Below are positions 45,285 through 60,363 of a stretch of DNA of 60,788 bases, piece after piece; the stretch's first letter is position 1, and each line of letters opens with the position of its first letter. Source of the DNA: Actinomycetota bacterium (lineage in GTDB: Bacteria; Actinomycetota; Acidimicrobiia; Acidimicrobiales; Ilumatobacteraceae); assembly GCA_043747765.1 (NCBI GenBank), contig JAYTOM010000112.1, forward strand, positions 1 to 60,788, in the 5' to 3' direction. A program made the translations under genes and the position numbers. A model generated the notes under the pieces. That model saw only the letters and a list, made by a program, of their open reading frames with translations. It did not search any database and was not told where the DNA came from.

Positions 45285-45357
45285 GGGCGATTAGCTCAGT
45301 TGGTAGAGCGCTACGTTCACACCGTAGAGGTCATCGGTTCGAGACCGGTATCGCCCA
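45285..45357 (+). tRNA. tRNA-Val: tRNA-Val (anticodon CAC)
   Basis: A cloverleaf was folded by hand. The acceptor stem is GGGCGAT/ATCGCCC. The anticodon arm is CTACG-TTCACAC-CGTAG, and the T-arm is ATCGG-TTCGAGA-CCGGT. The discriminator is A. CCA is not encoded. Confidence 0.9.
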
Positions 45358-45358
45358 C
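45315..45358 (+). repeat. attL core: 44-bp tRNA-Val 3' segment (copy 1 of 3)
   Basis: Identical to 58366..58409, and 43/44 identical to 60109..60152. Confidence 0.9.
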
Positions 45359-45445
45359 TAGATAACCCCAGCTCAGAGGGTATAGACGCTCAGCAACTGA
45401 CGAGGTTGCTTGACTGTCTGTGGGACGCGTGGGACGATGCGTCCC

Positions 45446-46522
45446 ATGAGCATCGAGAAACTGCCTTCTGGGAAGTACCGCGGCACCGTCCGTCACGATG
45501 GCAAGAAGGCCTCTACGCAGGCGTTCGCGACACGTGCTGAGGCTGCCATGGCAGAGGCACAACTGAAGATGAAGATGGGCGGTACGCCCGATGCCAGCGA
45601 GGTGACGATGGGGGAGCTGTTGCTCACTCATCTGGCTGAGAATGGCTACTCGCCAACGACTCACGCTGACGTTCTCAGAGTCATCACGAAGCTGCCCGAT
45701 GCCTTCAAGTCAAGGGCCGTTGCTGACGTGACGCCGCACATCCTCTATGGGCTGTACAAGCAACTGGCCGAGGAAGGCTGGACCGTCTACAGCATCCGGC
45801 GTGTGCATGAGACAGTCGGCAGTGCATACCGCAAGCGTGCCATTCCGTTCAGGTGGGCCGCGACCAACCCAGCACGTGACGTACAGCCCCCAGCACTGCC
45901 GCCCACAGAGATCCACCCACCGACAGTGGACGAGGTACGCACGATTCTGCAGGGGGCCGATGGGGCATTCGGTGCCTACTTGAAGCTGTCAGCCAACAGC
46001 GGGGCGCGGCGTGGCGAGATGCTTGCACTGCAGTGGCAGGACATGGACCTCGACCTCGGCCGTGTCGTGATCCGCAGATCGATCGTGAACACCCCAGCCA
46101 CCGGTATGACGGTACGTGAGACGAAGACAGGCAAGAAGGGCCATCGCGTGATCGGCGTGGGGCCTGGCATCGTGGGGGAGCTGAGAGCACATCGAGATGA
46201 GCAGAAGGCAGCCGCTGATTCCAATGGCCTACCGGCCCCTGTGTGGGTCTTCAGTCACGATGGTGGAATCACACCATGGCGCCCTGACTACATCACCTTG
46301 AAGTTCAACCGACTTCGTAAGACCCTGGGGCTGGATCACGTGAGGTTGCACGACCTTCGCCACTTCGTTGCCACCAAGATGCTGGGCGATGGTGTGCCGT
46401 TGGCAACCGTGTCCAAGAGGTTGGGCCATGCTCGTGCATCAACCACGCTCGATCGATACTCCCACTGGATGCCCCAGCAGGATCAGGACGCAGCTGACAG
46501 CCTGGACGCTCTACTGAGCTAG
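45446..46522 (+). CDS. int: tyrosine-type site-specific integrase
   Basis: MSIEKLPSGKYRGTVRHDGKK.. is an AP2-like N-terminus. The C-terminal catalytic blocks are ..GARRGEMLAL.., ..HDLRHFVAT.. and ..GHARASTTLDRYSH.. (alternative ATG 45437). Confidence 0.9.
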   Translation: MSIEKLPSGKYRGTVRHDGKKASTQAFATRAEAAMAEAQLKMKMGGTPDASEVTMGELLLTHLAENGYSPTTHADVLRVITKLPDAFKSRAVADVTPHILYGLYKQLAEEGWTVYSIRRVHETVGSAYRKRAIPFRWAATNPARDVQPPALPPTEIHPPTVDEVRTILQGADGAFGAYLKLSANSGARRGEMLALQWQDMDLDLGRVVIRRSIVNTPATGMTVRETKTGKKGHRVIGVGPGIVGELRAHRDEQKAAADSNGLPAPVWVFSHDGGITPWRPDYITLKFNRLRKTLGLDHVRLHDLRHFVATKMLGDGVPLATVSKRLGHARASTTLDRYSHWMPQQDQDAADSLDALLS

Positions 46523-47864: not shown

Positions 47865-48449
47865 GTGTTTACTCCGACCTACATCAAGCGCCGACCTATG
47901 GGGCGCACCTTTGCGAAGAAGGGCCGGGCTTGTACTCAGGCGCGGGAGTGTGACAGGACCTATCTCCGCAACTTCGGGCGACAGATTGCGGCTCTAGTTG
48001 AGCCACGGCTCCGCCAGAATTGCCATGGTTGGCGCAAGGGTCATTCGGTGGCGACGGCCGTGAGCGATATCGAGTCAAGAGTCGGCAATCGGGTCGTGTG
48101 CGACGTGCATCACTACTTTCCAACCGTCGATCAGGTTCGCCTACGCAAGATGGTCAACAAGCTCGATGCCACTTTGTGGTCGGAGATAGCGCCATGGCTA
48201 CCAGAAACAGGGTTGCCGACGGGGTGCGCCATTTCAAGCCCTCTCGCCAACCTCTATCTCAGCGACATTGATCGGCGGTTTCCCATCGTCCGATACGCGG
48301 ACAACTTTCTCGTGACAGCCGATGACACAGAACGGGTCTTGCGCAAACTTCAACGGCACCTCGACGACATCGGCCTACAGATGCACGAGGTCGAACACAA
48401 TCCAGCGCGCTTCTGCGGAACCCTTCTCGGCCCCATCAAGGGGCGCTAA
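47865..48449 (+). CDS. miniature reverse-transcriptase-like protein (fingers/palm only; YADN)
   Basis: RT blocks appear in order: TYIKRRPMGRTF, CHGWRKGHS, VVCDVHHYFPTVD, GLPTGCAISSPLANLYL, RYADNFLV, GLQMHEVEH..FCGTLLG. GTG start. There is no N-terminal extension and no thumb domain. It may be a relic. Confidence 0.6.
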   Translation: MFTPTYIKRRPMGRTFAKKGRACTQARECDRTYLRNFGRQIAALVEPRLRQNCHGWRKGHSVATAVSDIESRVGNRVVCDVHHYFPTVDQVRLRKMVNKLDATLWSEIAPWLPETGLPTGCAISSPLANLYLSDIDRRFPIVRYADNFLVTADDTERVLRKLQRHLDDIGLQMHEVEHNPARFCGTLLGPIKGR

Positions 48450-49129
48450 TTCGACATGTAGTTCCGTCGGTATTGCACCGATCGAACGAGTAACCAGCGC
48501 CCATGCCCTTCGCACGAGTGGGGATGTGGTGCGTGATCCAGCGTGGGCTCCATGATGGTGTCCTATGGGGATCAGGCGACGGCATCGGCACGGATGCCGT
48601 TACGGGCGGGGTATTCAGCACTGCGGCTGTCTACACCCTCTGCAAGAATGCCCTTTGTCCTCGCAGGCTTTGACCGGGACAATGGGCGTACGTCGCACGA
48701 ACGAGGGATTGTTGTCACGATCCTGGTACTGGACGTACGGTAGCAAGACATTTTCCAGTGCAGCCTCCGATATCTCGGTTGGAGCCGGGGGCAGGTAGCA
48801 AGTATCTGGGTCGGAATGATGGCTGAATCGATCAAATATTGGGGCCTAGAGCCTATATTTCTGGGAATTCACAGAATCGAAGATGACACCAGGTAAACGC
48901 GTGTGCAACGGGGGCAGATAGCAACTACCAGGGTCTGACTGGCGTCAGCGAGGGCCTATCAAACCAACGATGTGCTGATCTCTGCCACATGTGGCCTAGG
49001 GGCCCCTCTGCTTGTTTTGGGCTGTTGAGGGTGGTCGGTCCCGTCGTACTTCACTCGCGCAATAGTCAATTGTCCGAGCGTCTCACGCCAAGGACGGTAA
49101 CGAGTACGGTGCCTGCCGGAGGTTCTGTG

Positions 49130-50632
49130 ATGCGAATGACAATGGTTCGATCTCGTTGGACGGCGTTTGGTGTGGTGTTGGCAACTTTCGTCGGATCAGG
49201 CGGCCTGCTGGGTGCGTCGGCCACTGGTCCCTCTGGCGGGTCCGTATTTGTGCCGATCACGCCGTGTCGCCTGTTGGACACTCGACCGTCCTCGACAGTG
49301 GGGCCGAGGGCCGTCGCATTGGGCGCGTCGGAGACTTACACCGTGGCGGTCACGGGCAACGCCGGTAACTGCAACGTCCCTTCGGGCGCTACTGGATTGT
49401 CCATGAACGTTGTCGCGATCGACCCGACTGGCTCGTCATATCTCGCTGTGTTTCCGGCGGACAAGCCTCTGCCGTTGTCTTCCAACCTGAACTGGATTGC
49501 TCGCCAGCCTCCTACGCCGAATGCCGTCACGGTCGCCGTGTCGGGCGATGGCCGAATCAGCTTTTTCAACAACGCTGGCGCAGTCGATCTGGCTGTCGAC
49601 ATCGTCGGCTACTACGCAACCTCGGCCGATGGACCCGCCGGACCGACGGGACTCACAGGACCTGTTGGCCCTGCTGGGCCGACTGGAGCTACCGGAGCCA
49701 CTGGGCCAGTTGGGGCAGTTGGGCCAGCAGGAGCCAACGGTTCTTCGAACCGAATAAACAACGCTCAGATCGCCCAACTCCGTTGGGACCAGGCGAAGAA
49801 CGCACTCTTTGCGACGGTAGCGGTCGGGTCGGAGCCGGTCGGCGTTGCTTTTGACGGGGTGAGCGTCTGGGTAGCCAACTACCTGGCGGGCTCGGTCTCG
49901 AAGATCAACCCAACCACGAACGCAGTGATTGCGACGGTCGCCGTGGGCAACAACCCGCAGGGCGTTGCCTTTGACGGAGCAAGCATTTGGGCGGTCAATA
50001 CCGGTGATGGCACCGTTTCCAAGATCAACGCCACATCTAATGTGGTCTCGGCGCCCATCACAGTCGGCAGCGGGCCGGTGTGGGCTGCGTTCGATGGCAC
50101 GAGCCTCTGGGTTTCAAACGGCGTGTCCAACACGGTGTCGAAGATCAATGTCACGACGAACGCCGTGACCGGCCCCTACGCCGTCGGAACCAACCCGAGT
50201 GGCGTGGTCTTCGATGGGACAAGCATCTGGGTAGCAAACGGCGGATCTGGAAACGTCTCAAAGATCAACCCGAACACGAACACGGTGATTGCCACAATCG
50301 GCGTCGGCAACGGAGCGAACGGAATTGCTTTCGACGGAACCAACGTGTGGGTTGCGAATTCGTCCGACGCCACCGTGTCGAAGATCAACGCCGCGACCAA
50401 TGCCGTATCGCCGCCCATCACCGTGGGCAGCAATCCGAACAGGATCGCGTTCGACGGGACCAGCGTTTGGGTTACGAACTACGGGTCCGGAACCGTATCC
50501 AAGATCGACCCGACGACGAACGCGGTGAGCACGCTCACGATGGGTGGAAATCCATCTGGAGTGGCATACGACGGAACCAACGTCTGGGTCGCTGACTTCG
50601 CCACGAGCATAGTTCGAAAGCTGCTGCCCTAA
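49130..50632 (+). CDS. secreted protein: unknown N-domain + collagen-like G-X-Y stretch + ~7 YVTN-type beta-propeller repeats
   Basis: ATG 49130 follows a GGAGG RBS, with signal peptide MRMTMVRSRWTAFGVVLATFVGSGGLLGASA. There are 37 aa of G-X-Y (49631..49741). A ~40-aa unit then repeats, e.g. ..VGxxPxGVAFDGxxVWVANxxxGTVSKINxxTNAV.. Confidence 0.8.
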   Translation: MRMTMVRSRWTAFGVVLATFVGSGGLLGASATGPSGGSVFVPITPCRLLDTRPSSTVGPRAVALGASETYTVAVTGNAGNCNVPSGATGLSMNVVAIDPTGSSYLAVFPADKPLPLSSNLNWIARQPPTPNAVTVAVSGDGRISFFNNAGAVDLAVDIVGYYATSADGPAGPTGLTGPVGPAGPTGATGATGPVGAVGPAGANGSSNRINNAQIAQLRWDQAKNALFATVAVGSEPVGVAFDGVSVWVANYLAGSVSKINPTTNAVIATVAVGNNPQGVAFDGASIWAVNTGDGTVSKINATSNVVSAPITVGSGPVWAAFDGTSLWVSNGVSNTVSKINVTTNAVTGPYAVGTNPSGVVFDGTSIWVANGGSGNVSKINPNTNTVIATIGVGNGANGIAFDGTNVWVANSSDATVSKINAATNAVSPPITVGSNPNRIAFDGTSVWVTNYGSGTVSKIDPTTNAVSTLTMGGNPSGVAYDGTNVWVADFATSIVRKLLP

Positions 50633-50690: not shown

Positions 50691-51398
50691 GTGAAACAGA
50701 CTCCGAATCCCGAGCTGAACGCGGACCGTCCCGCAATCGGCTATCTGCGAGTATCCACAAACGTCCAGGCGAAGGACGGCTTTGGACTGGACGTTCAACG
50801 TGCGAGCATTGAGGCAACGGCCGATCGCATTGGGGCCAAGGTCGTGGTCTGGTGCTCAGACGAAGGAGTGTCGGGAACAGTCGAGGCGTTGGACCGTCCT
50901 GGGTTCAACTGCATTGTGGAGCACCTCAAGGCAGGAGACGCTGATCTTGTGCTCGTGCATCACGCCGATCGGCTCGCACGTACCCTCACGGTGCAAGAGG
51001 CCGCGCTCGCAGTGCTCTGGTCGAACAAGGCGACTGTGTTCATCGGCGGCGAAGAAGTGATTGCCGACGACCCGTCTGACCCTATTCGCACGATGGTTCG
51101 TCAAATCCTCGGGGCCGTGAACGAGTACGCACGTCGGGACGCGATGCTCAAGATGCATTCGGGTCGAAAGGCAATCCGACGCGCCGATCCCGCCCGGTAT
51201 ATCGGAGGCATCGTGCCAGCTGGGTGCGTCGTGATTGATGGCCGGCTCACCGCAACCCCCGAGTTCATCGACCAGATCAAGGGCATCCGTGAAGGGATTG
51301 CGTCTGGAATGTCAGCCAACGCGGTGGCCAAGGAGCTGGGCATGCATCCCCAGCAGATCAGCCGCCGCCTGGCCACGGCAACCCGTGTCGGCATCTGA
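50691..51398 (+). CDS. small serine recombinase (resolvase/invertase type) with C-terminal HTH
   Basis: ..AIGYLRVSTNVQAKDGFGLDVQ.. carries the catalytic Ser. ..LVLVHHADRLARTL.. is present, and the C-terminal ..MSANAVAKELGMHPQQISRRL.. is an HTH. Confidence 0.85.
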   Translation: MKQTPNPELNADRPAIGYLRVSTNVQAKDGFGLDVQRASIEATADRIGAKVVVWCSDEGVSGTVEALDRPGFNCIVEHLKAGDADLVLVHHADRLARTLTVQEAALAVLWSNKATVFIGGEEVIADDPSDPIRTMVRQILGAVNEYARRDAMLKMHSGRKAIRRADPARYIGGIVPAGCVVIDGRLTATPEFIDQIKGIREGIASGMSANAVAKELGMHPQQISRRLATATRVGI

Positions 51399-54931: not shown

Positions 54932-55189
54932 ATGGCGTTCCTGTATGGATCTACACTTGGCTTTGGACCAAACAAGCGAAGGCAGCTAGAAGGCACGAAT
55001 GAGGGCGCATTCGTGAACGGTTTAAGCGTTCAGCTCCAACGGTCAGCCGCAGCATTACAGGTCACGCCTGAGCCGCCTGCGGACTCTGATCTAGTCGGAC
55101 AGCTTGAACGGCTCGCCGCTCTTCATTATTCAGGCGTACTCTCGGACGAGGAACTTCGCGCGGCGAAGCAGCAACTACTCGGACCGTGA
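54932..55189 (+). CDS. small SHOCT-domain protein
   Basis: The C-terminal ..LVGQLERLAALHYSGVLSDEELRAAKQQLLG fits the SHOCT pattern. The start is uncertain. The rest of track ORF 54188.. is antisense to the LPXTG gene. Confidence 0.4.
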   Translation: MAFLYGSTLGFGPNKRRQLEGTNEGAFVNGLSVQLQRSAAALQVTPEPPADSDLVGQLERLAALHYSGVLSDEELRAAKQQLLGP

Positions 55190-55538
55190 CCTGGCGAACG
55201 TGGGGCAACGGGCTCGACTCTCGCTTATCGGAACCACGCGACCAACTTTCCGACTAGGTAGATCAGCGGAGTGGCGATGGTGGCCACTTCCGCGAGCTTG
55301 GAAATGAGACGTTTGTTGGAATCGCGCTGAGGTTTCACTGCCTGTTCTATCGGTGGTGGCCGCGCACGACATGAGACTTTGCTCCTACAACTCCAAAGTA
55401 GATCGGCATCTCGACGTCTGATCTAAAGTCTGTGTGACAAAAGTCACTGTTTGGACTGACTGCGCGAAGTCATCTGACCAATTGCGAGCGGAGCGTTCCG
55501 AACGCCACACCACGACGGGCTGCATGCGAAACTTCACT

Positions 55539-56084
55539 ATGGAACTCGATGACCAACTTTCGTGGCTAATTGGTCGCGTGGTGCGCGTGGGCGCTCTGGC
55601 CGAGATGGAGGCTCGTCGTGTCCAGTTGGCGTTGCTGGGTGACAGTCTGGCGGCGTTTATGCCACACACAATGCATATGAATGCCACTCTCGGTTCGATC
55701 GAGGCGATGGTGAAACACGCAGATCTTGACCCCGACCGACTCTCACTCGCCTTACGAGTTGTCGTTGATTCGAGGACCGCTAATTCCGAGCGCAACAGGT
55801 GCGTGCATGACATCTGGTACCCGAACTCAGACGTGGAGGCTGATTCGTGGATTCGCCTTCGCTGGCAGAAGGCGTTCGATTTGAACGACGAGCCCCCTGC
55901 CGTGAAGCCGCTGGTGAGCAGGGCGGAACTTGGACGGACAGTTGAAGACCTTGATAGCGCTGGTTACAAACTGAACTGCCTGATGCGTTGCCTCGTAGCC
56001 ACGCTGCCGAGTTGGGCGGCTGCTCGGCCCGAGCCGTTCGACTACGCAGCGCCATGGACTGAGTTGGCGCTGGCGTTCGACTGA
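55539..56084 (+). CDS. hypothetical helical protein with an R-N-x3-H (HEPN-like) motif
   Basis: ..ANSE-RNRCVH-DIW.. lies at codons 55791..55808. Alternative starts are ATG 55524 and GTG 55434. The sequence is lower-GC cargo DNA. Confidence 0.4.
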   Translation: MELDDQLSWLIGRVVRVGALAEMEARRVQLALLGDSLAAFMPHTMHMNATLGSIEAMVKHADLDPDRLSLALRVVVDSRTANSERNRCVHDIWYPNSDVEADSWIRLRWQKAFDLNDEPPAVKPLVSRAELGRTVEDLDSAGYKLNCLMRCLVATLPSWAAARPEPFDYAAPWTELALAFD

Positions 56085-56249
56085 ATGTCTGTCGAGGGTG
56101 GTGCCGGGCCACTTTCGGTCAAACCTGCTACGAATGACACGCTAACTCTTGCAAGCACTGGGGGTTTATATCCCTACGGCGAGGCCTTCTGAATGTTCTT
56201 TGGCGGATCTCGGGGCGCGTGTTCGAAACCTTGCGCCACAATCAAGCCC

Positions 56250-57137
56250 ATGGATCCAATAACAATCGCAGCAGCCGCAAAGGTTGCATCTTCGGTGGAC
56301 AAGTCCGACGGCCTTCTGAAGCGTGTGCTGGGGCCACCCGCCGATGCTTTGGGCGTAGCCCTGGGCCGCTTCGTGGAGGCACGCACTCAGAACGTCGGGC
56401 GAATTCTGGAGAATGCGGACACCAAGTTGGGTGCTAGAGGCGATCGCCCCGAGAAGGTTCCAATGCGCATTGCGGGGCTCTTGATGGAGGATTGCAGCTA
56501 CTGCGACGAACCGATAATGGTCGAGTACATCGGCGGAGTGCTGGCCTCATCCCGTTCTGGAGTATCCAGGGACGATCGAGGGGCGAAGTGGATGAAGCTC
56601 GTCCTGCAACTCTCCACCTACGAACTTCGTGCTCATTACATCGCGTATCAGGCAACTCAGCTCGCGCTCCGCGAACGCAACGCTCGTCGCAACTGGACGG
56701 ATGTCAATGATGCGGCGGCGTTTGGCCCAATGTGCATCCCCTACAAAGATTTCATGTCAGCAATGGACTTCGTATTAGGCGAGCCGCAGGACGAGATAGT
56801 CTCGGAAACAGTATTCGGGCTCTCCAGGGCCGGCCTGCTCGACCAGTTCTCGTTGTTCACACCGCTCACCTTTGAAGTGGTTCATCAGCGTCAGTCCCAC
56901 CCAACGGGGATGTTGACGTTCATGCCCACTGTTCCGGGCATACACCTATTCCTGTACGCCTTGGGAATGGGCGACCTTCCGATCAGCGCGTTCGACGATC
57001 CCGAGGTGAATGTGCCGGGGCTGGAGGGGGTGGCGTGCAATCCAGCCACTCTGTTCGTGGACGTTGCTCCCTTCACCAGCGAGCAAATGTCAGAGCGAGC
57101 GCAGAGGGCCGTCTCTGATGCCCTGAATCACCCTTAG
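56250..57137 (+). CDS. Abi-alpha/DUF4393-like protein
   Basis: MDPITIAAAAKV..LLKRVLGPPADALGVAL..RTQNVGRILENA..VPMRIAGLLMEDCSYCDEPIMVEYIGGVLASS..LQLSTYELRAHYIAY matches the family pattern from memory. Confidence 0.55.
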   Translation: MDPITIAAAAKVASSVDKSDGLLKRVLGPPADALGVALGRFVEARTQNVGRILENADTKLGARGDRPEKVPMRIAGLLMEDCSYCDEPIMVEYIGGVLASSRSGVSRDDRGAKWMKLVLQLSTYELRAHYIAYQATQLALRERNARRNWTDVNDAAAFGPMCIPYKDFMSAMDFVLGEPQDEIVSETVFGLSRAGLLDQFSLFTPLTFEVVHQRQSHPTGMLTFMPTVPGIHLFLYALGMGDLPISAFDDPEVNVPGLEGVACNPATLFVDVAPFTSEQMSERAQRAVSDALNHP

Positions 57138-57199: not shown

Positions 57200-57533
57200 T
57201 GACGACCCGTCTGATCCCATTCGCACGATGGTTCGTCAGATCCTCGGAGCCGTGAACGAGTACGCGCGTCGGGACGCGATGCTCAAGATGCATTCGGGTC
57301 GGAAGGCGATTCGACGTGCCGATCCTGCTCGTTACATAGGAGGCATCGTGCCAGCTGGGTGCGTCGTGATTGATGGCCGGCCAACCGCAACCAGCGACTT
57401 CATCGAGCAGGTCTCTGCCATTCGTGAAGGGGTTGCGGCTGGAATGTCAGCGAACGCTGTAGCGAAGGAGCTGGGTATGCATCCGCAGCAGATTAGCCGC
57501 CGACTTGCGACCGCAGCGCGTGTTGGGATCTGA
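57200..57533 (+). pseudogene. 5'-truncated paralogue of the serine recombinase gene (C-terminal 110 codons only)
   Basis: About 90% identical to 51066..51398, in direct orientation. Homology starts abruptly at GACGACCCGTCTGA. No catalytic domain lies upstream. Confidence 0.8.
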
Positions 57534-58241: not shown

Positions 58242-58365
58242 GTGGGCTGATTTCGTGGGACGCTGTGGGACGAAACCTCGCAACAGGCCACACATGAGGC
58301 ATGTCGAGAATCGTCTGAGCTGGGACTATGTGTCGAGAGTAGTCACGACATGACCACTGAAGCCT

Positions 58366-58409
58366 GTTCACACCGTAGAGGTCATCGGTTCGAGACCGGT
58401 ATCGCCCAC
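58366..58409 (+). repeat. attR of island 1 / attL of the remnant: 44-bp tRNA-Val 3' segment (copy 2, 44/44)
   Basis: Exact direct repeat of 45315..45358. Confidence 0.9.
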
Positions 58410-58693
58410 CAGGTCAGCCGTAGTAAACGGTTGACTGTTAGGTCAGCCGGAGACGCCCGTGAGACGTTTCTTCGTGCGTTCGTTGTGCCGTGCCGGCGGA
58501 GACGCGTGCGTGGACGTGTTTGCAGTCGGGTGCGATCGCCTCCGACGACGACGCACACGCAGCAAGCTGGCGGGCGTATGTTCCCAGGAACACAATTGGC
58601 AGATGTGCTGCCCGTTGTGTTCCTGGGGAAACTCGCCGAGCAGACCACTTGAATTGTGCTGAGCCCCGTCGGTGGTCGGAGTGCGATTTCGCG

Positions 58694-58924
58694 ATGACGT
58701 TCACTCGGATCACGGTCGATGCGGTGCGCATGGGTGGCTTGCCGTGTGTTCGTGACCTTCGGTTTCCCGTTGCGTCAGTGGTCGCGATGGTCGCTCACCG
58801 AATGACCGTCGATGAGATCCTCGATGAGCATGCAGATCTCGAGGCTGAAGATGTGGCTGAGTGCCTGCCGTACGCAGCGCTTGCCGTGCAAGAACGCGAG
58901 CTGCCGCTGCGCCAGCCGGCGTGA
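58694..58924 (+). CDS. DUF433-family antitoxin-like protein
   Basis: ..ITVDAVRMGGLPCVRDLRFPVASVVAMV..MTVDEILDEHADLEAEDVAECLPYA.. is the DUF433 pattern. Confidence 0.7.
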   Translation: MTFTRITVDAVRMGGLPCVRDLRFPVASVVAMVAHRMTVDEILDEHADLEAEDVAECLPYAALAVQERELPLRQPA

Positions 58925-59193
58925 GGTTTCTGATCGACCAGAACCAGTCGCCGTTGCTCGTCGAACTGATCGCAGTTCATGGTCACGATGTCGCCCATGC
59001 CCGCGATCGTGGCCGGTCCGGAGCGCCGGACCGCCACGTTCTGGAAGTGGCGATCGACCGGAGCAGCATCGTTGGCGTTTCCTCTGTCATCGGATCTTGG
59101 TCCGCTGGACTTACAGCAGGAGGACGAATCGTGTGTACGGTCGGTCTTCCGGAGGATAGCTCTCGTTGGCCTCGGGGAACACGGATCGGCTGA
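58921..59193 (+). CDS. DUF5615 (PIN-like, Mut7-C type) toxin-like protein, possibly degenerate
   Basis: GTGA overlap with the DUF433 gene. The N-terminal VRFLIDQNQSPLLVELI..GHDVAHARD.G..GAPDRHVLE fits DUF5615. The C-terminal half lacks the usual DxDF block. Confidence 0.5.
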   Translation: MRFLIDQNQSPLLVELIAVHGHDVAHARDRGRSGAPDRHVLEVAIDRSSIVGVSSVIGSWSAGLTAGGRIVCTVGLPEDSSRWPRGTRIG

Positions 59194-59590
59194 AGGCGAT
59201 CGACGCAAGATTGGTTGGGTAGACGAGCCAGTGGACGTAGCGGACATCATTCCGTTGCATGTCTGCGATGACGGACTCGGCGAGCGTGCTCGCGATGCCG
59301 TCTCGGCGATGGTCGTGTCGAACGGCGACGACCATCAGGTAGCGCTCGGCGGGTATTGGCCCGTGTTGGTCGTCTTCGCCGAGTTCGTGCGCAGCGACGG
59401 CCACGACCTCGCCCCTGATGTCAGCGACGACGACCCGTCGATCGAGGTCTGCTCGGGTCTCGTCGTCGCGCCATGCAATGAGGCCGGACAGGATCTCAGA
59501 GATCTCGCTGAGCCAGATCGTGGGTTGTGGCCCGAGGTCGAAGTCCTGGAGCGCCAGTTCGTCACTGCGCGCGGCGTCACGGAGGATCAC
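59111..59590 (-). CDS. GNAT family acetyltransferase (toxin candidate)
   Basis: GTG 59590 forms a GTGA overlap with the XRE gene stop. ..YLMVVAVRHDHRRDGIASTLAESVIADM.. is GNAT motif A-like. Confidence 0.6.
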   Translation of the reverse strand: MILRDAARSDELALQDFDLGPQPTIWLSEISEILSGLIAWRDDETRADLDRRVVVADIRGEVVAVAAHELGEDDQHGPIPAERYLMVVAVRHDHRRDGIASTLAESVIADMQRNDVRYVHWLVYPTNLASIAFSRSVFPEANESYPPEDRPYTRFVLLL

Positions 59591-59910: not shown

Positions 59911-60108
59911 GCCGCAAGTGTATGTGGGAAAACACATAGTCTCAAGTGTGTTTCGCCGAGAATGCCTCAGATACCTTCACAACGTCCCGTGAGACGCTCG
60001 TGAGACGTTTTGCGACAACAGGCCACGATTCGGCTGTGTCGGCTGTGTCGGCTGTCGTCGCGAGTGGTCCTGACCTGCGGTTTGTTGTTTTCTGCAGCGC
60101 CTGGATCT

Positions 60109-60152
60109 GGTTCACACCGTAGAGGCCATCGGTTCGAGACCGGTATCGCCCA
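60109..60152 (+). repeat. distal att: 44-bp tRNA-Val 3' segment (copy 3, 43/44; T to C at 60125)
   Basis: Direct repeat of 45315..45358 with one mismatch. Confidence 0.88.
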
Positions 60153-60363
60153 CCGAATAAGACCTGCTCAGCGGTATTGCATTCAAAATTGTCGGAGTTG
60201 AGATCTCCGCCAGGTGCACACCAGGTGCACAGGATTTTCTGGCACTATGCATCACCAGGTGGACAAATTGAGCTTCAGGCGGACCCAGACGGCCGGGCTG
60301 GACTGAGGTCGCCAGTGGAGGAACCGGCCGCCGACCGTTTGGCAGCCGATGTTGACCGAACAC

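Follow-up and report, generated by a model that had tools for sequence, protein, structure and literature searches.

The DNA analysed here, referred to as the window, is a stretch of 60,788 nucleotides (nt) from an Actinomycetota bacterium of the Ilumatobacteraceae (assembly GCA_043747765.1, contig JAYTOM010000112.1). It carries two neighbouring open reading frames (ORFs) on the forward strand, named ORF A and ORF B in this study. In an earlier annotation made from the letters of the window (the sequence-only reading), A was described as a HEPN-like protein and B as an Abi-alpha/DUF4393-like protein, and the pair was proposed as a two-gene abortive-infection or defence module. Both ORFs were found on the same strand with the coordinates and starts given in that annotation. 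The lower guanine plus cytosine (GC) content ascribed to their surroundings was also recovered, as it measured 0.571 and 0.585 over 55-57 kb against about 0.64 over 1-45 kb. The segment contains the following features.

55539-56084, forward strand: ORF A, 181 amino acids, predicted all-helical, with a HEPN-like Rx4H motif; member of an unannotated family
55602-55616, forward strand: Ex3R element E22-M-E-A-R26 of ORF A, in helix 1 of the model; position 22 is acidic and conserved
55791-55808, forward strand: Rx4H motif R85-N-R-C-V-H90 of ORF A, with a polar N after R and followed by D91-I-W93
56085-56249, forward strand: A-B spacer of 165 nt, with two TGA-ATG junctions inside it or at its edges
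56250-57137, forward strand: ORF B, 295 amino acids; member of a widespread stand-alone family, plausibly a distant relative of Abi_alpha (PF14337)
56523-56582, forward strand: core motif of ORF B, E92-Y-I-G-G-V-L-A-S-S-R-S-G-V-S-R-D-D-R-G111, with residues invariant in 43 aligned homologues
56619-56648, forward strand: second motif of ORF B, Y124-E-L-R-A-H-Y-I-A-Y133, with residues invariant in 43 aligned homologues

Two other starts are available for ORF A, 55524 (the choice of a gene caller) and 55434. For ORF B, gene callers picked a long form starting at 56193. The homologues begin at the MDP of 56250, which is therefore the likely start. Read in the frame of ORF A, the codons at 55791-55808 are CGC AAC AGG TGC GTG CAT, which confirms the RNRCVH reported there, and the peptides VPMRIAGLLMEDCSYCDEPIMVEYIGGVLASS and LQLSTYELRAHYIAY quoted for B are present in the ORF B translation.

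A word-index search retrieved ORF A alone, as if it were an orphan. That view was overturned when HMMER, run in full against 1.84 billion representatives, recovered 39 relatives; a profile search recovered 85. The A family comprises about 115 sequences of about 200 amino acids each, all annotated as 'hypothetical'. Members with a named source all belong to Actinomycetota (Kineosporia, Kribbella, Nocardioidaceae). Residue conservation was counted on an alignment of 115 sequences with a mean identity of about 25%. Every one of the 115 sequences has both R85 and H90, and the two are accompanied by the near-invariant N86 (110/115), R87 (111/115), D91 (112/115) and W93 (110/114), while G12 is invariant across the alignment. 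Position 22 is glutamic or aspartic acid in 110 of 112 sequences and falls within the E-x3-R of the first helix of the model; R26 is less than 60% conserved. A single Rx4H in one protein of 181 amino acids could be chance. Its conservation throughout the aligned family is not, and the motif gains significance because R85 and H90 are retained in all 115 homologues at such low identity. The RNxxxH motif singled out by the sequence-only reading is thus conserved among the homologues.

The AlphaFold2 model of A, built on the family alignment, has a predicted local distance difference test (pLDDT) score of 93.4 and a predicted template modelling score of 0.87. It is composed of long helices at residues 3-33, 47-59, 65-90 and 128-155. 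In this predicted model, the motif (85-90) occupies the last residues of the third long helix (65-90), and beyond residue 90 the chain passes straight into a beta hairpin. HEPN domains are described as a four-helix core whose Rx4-6H motif stands where helix 3 ends or where the loop to helix 4 begins, and in which the residue following R is mostly N, D or H; the HEPN domain of Csx1 has a beta hairpin immediately past the motif, and an upstream Ex3[KR], placed in helix 2, is frequent among HEPN families (PMC3710099). In agreement with this description, A has Rx4H with a polar residue after R, a predicted four-helix core with the motif ending helix 3, and a predicted hairpin after the motif. The helix-prone nature noted earlier for A was reproduced by the all-helical model, which places R-N-x3-H where HEPN domains carry it. 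By motif and predicted topology A is HEPN-like. It is given this name rather than that of a demonstrated HEPN member because the comparison tests, given below, failed.

ORF B has 146 relatives at an expectation value (E) of 1e-3 or less, with proteins of about 270 amino acids. Counted as one genome per species, they are distributed in Verrucomicrobiota, Acidobacteriota, Bacteroidota, Pseudomonadota, Planctomycetota, Chloroflexota, Actinomycetota and others, and one member is found in an archaeal metagenome-assembled genome (MAG) of Methanosarcinaceae. The alignment has 16 invariant positions, clustered in EY.GGVLASS-x-S-x3-SRDDRG and Y..R.HY..Y. Among 43 homologues, Y93, G95, G96, V97, A99, R107, D108, D109 and R110 of the core motif and Y124, R127, H129 and Y133 of the second motif are invariant. 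The AlphaFold model of B has a pLDDT of 87.5.

The sole recurrent database affinity of the B family is to Pfam Abi_alpha, which was matched by 9 of 43 members with a best E of 0.0035. The family consensus matched the same profile with 21.8 bits and an E of 2e-4, colinear over positions 6-161 of 196. One homologue carries the UniRef name DUF4393. On these sequence matches, B is plausibly a remote relative of Abi-alpha. Abi-alpha of Enterococcus, EF2833, is a single prophage gene that makes infected cells lyse prematurely (PMC6356687); its mechanism was still unknown in 2025 (bioRxiv 10.1101/2025.10.23.684294). The gp03 protein of phage phiNM1 (L105, 1402-2334, reverse strand), encoded between the excisionase and cI repressor genes, was tried as a DUF4393 reference and dropped as it gave no Abi_alpha match, nor any Pfam match at E <= 0.1. 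The DUF4393 protein reported in a 2025 preprint to be the most abundant prophage protein is therefore either another gene or a case below this threshold.

The two families do not travel together. When the flanks of 87 other B loci were scanned with the hidden Markov model of the A family, an A-family gene was found beside B in none of them (0/87), and this outcome extends to the nearest relatives of B and to four contigs of viral origin. In the opposite direction, 0 of 9 independent A loci have a B-family gene, and an Abi_alpha neighbour is also found in 0 of 9. Adjacency of A and B is confined to four contigs (L089-L092) with identical proteins and the same neighbours, which represent the window's own strain. 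A metagenome pattern scan with a narrow A alignment gave one weak locus. Neither family has a conserved neighbour of another kind. An all-against-all BLAST of flanking ORFs from 80 B loci of different species found no neighbour family in more than five loci; 98 immediate B neighbours gave hits to 94 Pfam families, each confined to one or two loci and many of them housekeeping, and no neighbour is conserved among the nine A loci. The dedicated two-gene defence or toxin-antitoxin module proposed by the sequence-only reading is not supported, because co-occurrence is absent in either direction outside the strain itself.

Individually, both families are found in mobile and defence-rich company. 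The gp35 protein of the temperate Gordonia phage Toast (L104, NC_053173, 3866-4852) is a B homologue, 30% identical to P0092, and matched Abi_alpha with 18.6 bits (E 2e-3). It is annotated as hypothetical. Its gene has the tail genes to one side and the serine integrase to the other, and it is transcribed against the direction of the tail genes, a position that suits a candidate prophage-expressed defence gene. B homologues are present on four IMG/VR contigs and A homologues on two. AbiJ-like, Ymh, AIPR, SLATT_5, MvaI/BcnI, PIN_4, HNH, NERD and integrase genes were found beside other B homologues. A homologues were found directly downstream of an integrase, near PycTM, and next to DUF4145 and YaaC genes. 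Two of these A loci are L100 (Kribbella sindirgiensis) and L103, where A homologues lie in a PycTM (Pycsar effector-type) island and, following an integrase, in a DpdA-bearing element.

Based on these observations, A and B are best explained as two separate, independently mobile, single-gene accessory functions that stand side by side in the cargo of a 13-kb tRNA-Val island and are probably not the halves of a dedicated system. We give this reading a probability of about 0.55. HEPN enzymes are usually dimeric. A would be a small four-helix protein whose R-N-R-x-V-H-D-x-W, ending helix 3, fits the metal-independent RNase site of HEPN domains. What we infer for the two proteins covers RNase activity, defence role and triggers: A may be a latent RNase that, once triggered, would cleave RNA and arrest growth, and B may act alone in a phage-exclusion role resembling that of Abi-alpha. 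From their sequences, A and B are credible candidates for unannotated single-gene defence of the abortive-infection type.

The points that weigh against this reading come from the comparison searches, from the arrangement of the two genes and from the flanks of other B homologues. Neither ORF has a match in Pfam, NCBIfam or PADLOC, and A has none in PHROG. Even with E allowed to reach 10, none of 38 A members and neither of two consensus sequences matched a HEPN Pfam family, and a sequence-profile search of the PDB with the A-family alignment came back empty. The Foldseek search of the A model against the PDB gave nothing below E 0.1 and no HEPN in the top 50. An hhalign comparison of the A family with two-sequence alignments of AbiJ-like HEPN and Ymh was null and of low power. 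A HEPN fold, which the sequence-only reading had named as a check on its idea, was thus not recovered by any of these profile or structure comparisons. For B, a PHROG search with ORF B, A and eight homologues gave nothing useful, Foldseek of the model against the PDB and BFVD gave nothing significant, and no match was found among PLSDB plasmids. No B-family score reaches the gathering threshold of Abi_alpha (PF14337), which is 29 bits, and the window protein itself has no match. The Abi-alpha/DUF4393 affinity read earlier in B is the only recurrent one that the family shows in the databases, at scores below that threshold.

These results leave room for a reading in which defence is not the role of one of the genes, or of either. 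A would then be a helical bundle whose R/H site serves other chemistry or binding, and B would take part in the maintenance or regulation of mobile elements. The C-terminal part of B looks winged-helix-like, with weak Foldseek matches to PadR, ScpA and H1-type winged helices. The best Foldseek matches of A are generic four-helix bundles rather than HEPN proteins, and all are non-significant (E about 0.2 or worse). PADLOC is silent on both proteins, and many B neighbours are housekeeping genes. Set against this are the make-up of the A motif (R, N, hydrophobics, H-D) and its location where helix 3 ends, which match the HEPN description, and Abi_alpha as the only recurrent affinity of B. Both families are also patchy; their members turn up on islands, in prophages and in phage genomes, and known defence genes are repeatedly found next to them. 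A role outside defence for one or both genes is considered unlikely.

The arrangement of A and B could mean co-expression. They lie on one strand with a gap of 165 nt, and two terminator-like sites were found in the A-B region, neither of them in the spacer. TGA-ATG junctions at 56082-56087 and 56190-56195 share CTGAATGT. ORF A, a 35-codon ORF (56085-56192) and the long form of ORF B are in one frame, separated by two TGA codons only, and an ATG directly after a stop codon is seen at about 1% of the stops in the window. The spacer has no Rfam match and no promoter-like site, and its GC content by codon position is not of the coding type. From the sequence, the junctions could reflect termination-reinitiation coupling or could be coincidence.

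The single frame also raises the idea that A and B are remnants of one fused gene, or that TGA read-through yields an A-linker-B protein. This is highly improbable. Homologues of A stop at the end of A and those of B begin at the MDP of 56250, and no fused homologue occurs in either family, whose members measure about 200 and 270 amino acids. The spacer without a coding-type GC pattern also argues against it. A fused or read-through protein was rejected on the homologue termini.

The flanks of the same 87 B loci were searched for ORFs with the pattern RN-x-[hydrophobic]-[small]-H. Such HEPN-motif ORFs make up 6 of the 253 within 1 kb of B and 2 of the 600 at greater distance (Fisher p = 0.010; odds ratio 7.3), while the reversed pattern occurred once in each zone. 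One of the six near hits, a methyltransferase-like ORF in L012, is probably false. HEPN-motif neighbours on the same strand as B include a Ymh gene 57 nt upstream in L009, a gene 23 nt downstream in L010 and one 51 nt downstream in L094. In L034 and two related loci an AbiJ-like Rx5H protein is encoded upstream of B (in L034 at 119 nt and on the same strand). When the L094 neighbour (175 amino acids) was compared with the A family by hhalign, a weak, colinear signal with a score of 21.3 was obtained, which was reached by 0 of 150 shuffles; HMMER with the A profile misses this protein. Within the small sub-clade of B from actinobacteria, a same-strand upstream gene of a nuclease family (A, HNH twice, PIN_4) was seen in four of the six contexts.

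RN..(A/V)H proteins of the Ymh, RiboL-PSP-like and unnamed families are encoded near B in several phyla, at 2186-2713 in L094, 6824-7337 in L010, 5111-5914 and 7532-8248 in L009, 6652-7635 in L082 and 6592-8409 in L095. In L041, an Acidimicrobiales MAG, a B homologue at about 1316-2151 is 55% identical over residues 1-126 and starts at the stop codon of a 391-amino-acid HNH-type ORF (147-1322). It is apparently frameshifted past about residue 126, as a pseudogene or by an assembly error. Neighbours of B in L044 and L024 were considered nuclease-like on motifs read by eye; PDB searches for their nuclease identity gave nothing, and they were left out of the counts.

These flanks bear on an alternative in which Abi-alpha-like proteins of the B type cooperate with a HEPN-type nuclease that can be swapped for another, A/B being a single lineage-specific case. 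B could sense or regulate with A as the RNase effector, or the two could form a toxin/antitoxin-like pair. This cooperation would agree with the strand, the short terminator-free spacer and the TGA-ATG junctions of the window, with the unrelated same-strand HEPN-motif genes adjoining B in other lineages, and with the near-versus-far enrichment, the A-like signal in L094 and the upstream nuclease genes of the actinobacterial sub-clade. On the other side, about 90% of B loci have no nearby HEPN-motif gene, and their immediate neighbours are mostly unrelated and often housekeeping. No A locus has a B or Abi_alpha neighbour, Abi-alpha itself works as one gene, the enrichment amounts to six hits including the probably false one, and the L094 neighbour is unseen by the HMMER profile of A. 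The HEPN neighbour changes in family and in gene order from locus to locus, as defence-island clustering would also give. The enrichment is explained equally by such clustering and by modular partnership, and the numbers are small. Cooperation is therefore judged unlikely. A further form, in which the B family supplies one component of a modular pair and the other is an exchangeable nuclease, HEPN-type or not (A; Ymh, AbiJ-like and other RN..H proteins; HNH or PIN in the actinobacterial sub-clade), is quite unlikely. If true, it would make A/B a working unit of sensor or regulator plus RNase, possibly coupled translationally through the TGA-ATG junctions, and would offer a first mechanistic handle on killing or arrest by proteins of the Abi-alpha type.

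The favoured reading, two independent accessory genes in one island, also draws on the setting of the segment, for which the following features were recorded.

45285-45358, forward strand: tRNA-Val(CAC), integration site of the island, identified by ARAGORN
45410-46522, forward strand: tyrosine-integrase-like ORF adjoining the tRNA, with a C-terminal ...HDLRH...LGH...Y pattern read by eye
55225-55338, reverse strand: 37-codon ORF, taken from the ORF list
57201-57500, forward strand: partial second resolvase copy, 88% identical to the 3' part of the gene, flanking the A/B segment
58357-58431, forward strand: direct repeat of the tRNA-Val 3' end, likely distal attachment site, found by repeat search

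About 45 nt from the 3' end of tRNA-Val are present three times as a direct repeat, at 45306-45380, 58357-58431 and 60101-60175. The A/B island therefore extends over about 45.36-58.41 kb (13 kb), with A and B near its distal end. This implies two integrative elements in tandem at tRNA-Val, of about 13 kb and about 1.7 kb. The second repeat also runs into a 100-amino-acid ORF (58350-58652), which the repeat may have produced as an artefact. Within the island, the A/B segment is bracketed by an intact resolvase gene (50691-51398, PF00239 Resolvase) and a partial copy of its last 300 nt, the two repeats lying at 51066-51365 and 57201-57500 with 88% identity. A 101-amino-acid fragment from the second copy has a weak HTH_38 match. 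The SHOCT-like C-terminus ending at 55189 scored 25.1 bits against a cutoff of 27. The tRNA-Val island, recombinase repeats, SHOCT-like neighbour and 37-codon ORF are thus as the sequence-only reading had described them. In GC content, overall and at third codon positions, A resembles B and both resemble the remainder of the island, so composition is uninformative on their joint arrival.

Other genes were observed in the two elements. An ORF of 194 amino acids (47865-48449, forward strand) matches Pfam RVT_1 with 30.9 bits against a cutoff of 29.6 and contains YADN; it represents a reverse transcriptase, short or truncated, that belongs to the 13-kb island and may be what is left of a retron, a group II intron or a defence-type reverse transcriptase. 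A periodic repeat of 120 nt at 49895-50528, with at least four copies that are 60-71% identical, lies within a gene for a secreted repeat protein of 547 amino acids (48989-50632) and encodes 40-amino-acid units of the form '...VSKIN..TN.V...'. The second, small element carries DUF433 (58694-58924) and DUF5615 (58921-59418) genes on the forward strand with a 4-nt overlap, their Pfam matches being those recorded for the identical contig L089. The combination of DUF433 with DUF5615 is known and resembles a toxin-antitoxin pair.

If confirmed, A would add an unannotated actinobacterial family to the HEPN-type RNases, and B would extend the Abi-alpha group to a large multi-phylum family, with a conserved core (SRDDRG, R127, H129) that suits mutagenesis. 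As the mechanism of Abi-alpha is unknown and B is well conserved and confidently modelled, B would be a usable entry point to it. For annotation, this locus alone is no ground for listing A/B as a new two-gene system, and the weak enrichment of HEPN-motif genes beside B merits a larger census.

Compared with known systems, the A/B pair is most easily set beside HEPN-MNT (HepT-MntA), which also consists of two genes including a small Rx4H protein. It differs in that B has no nucleotidyltransferase features or match, and the pairing is unconserved whereas HEPN-MNT is defined by conserved adjacency.

Taken singly, A resembles HEPN RNases (HepT/DUF86, AbiV/AbiU2-type, Esos) in its Rx4H with a polar N after R, in a predicted core made of helices, the third of which has the motif at its C terminus, in a conserved upstream acidic residue (within an Ex3R whose R26 is less than 60% conserved), in its small size and in its mobile or defence setting. 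Among these relatives in kind, 'Esos' is a single-domain HEPN-like integron defence cassette (bioRxiv 10.1101/2024.07.02.601686). A departs from HEPN RNases in having no profile or fold match to HEPN Pfam families or solved HEPN structures, in the acidic residue placed in helix 1 instead of helix 2 and in a beta hairpin of about 35 residues after the motif. It has no MNT-type antitoxin or other fixed partner, and its named members are restricted to Actinomycetota.

B differs from Abi-alpha in scoring at most 21.8 bits against 29, in having no PHROG, PADLOC or BFVD structural match, and in its own invariant signature EY.GGVLASS/SRDDRG/Y..R.HY. Its members also come from Actinomycetota, from many phyla of Gram-negative bacteria and from a single archaeal MAG, whereas Abi-alpha homologues were reported mostly from Gram-positive prophages (PMC6356687). 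At the same time, B shares with Abi-alpha (EF2833, prophage 6 of E. faecalis V583) and with the DUF2806 defence cassette 'Belisama' a length of about 270-300 amino acids and the status of a single gene without a fixed partner. As for Abi-alpha, its distribution is patchy and wide and includes prophages and temperate phages, and its sub-threshold match is colinear with most of the profile. B is in this sense a single-gene, prophage- or mobile-borne family, with no conserved neighbour and with members in Toast (gp35), on IMG/VR contigs and in the island of the window. The locus stretches no known kind of system.

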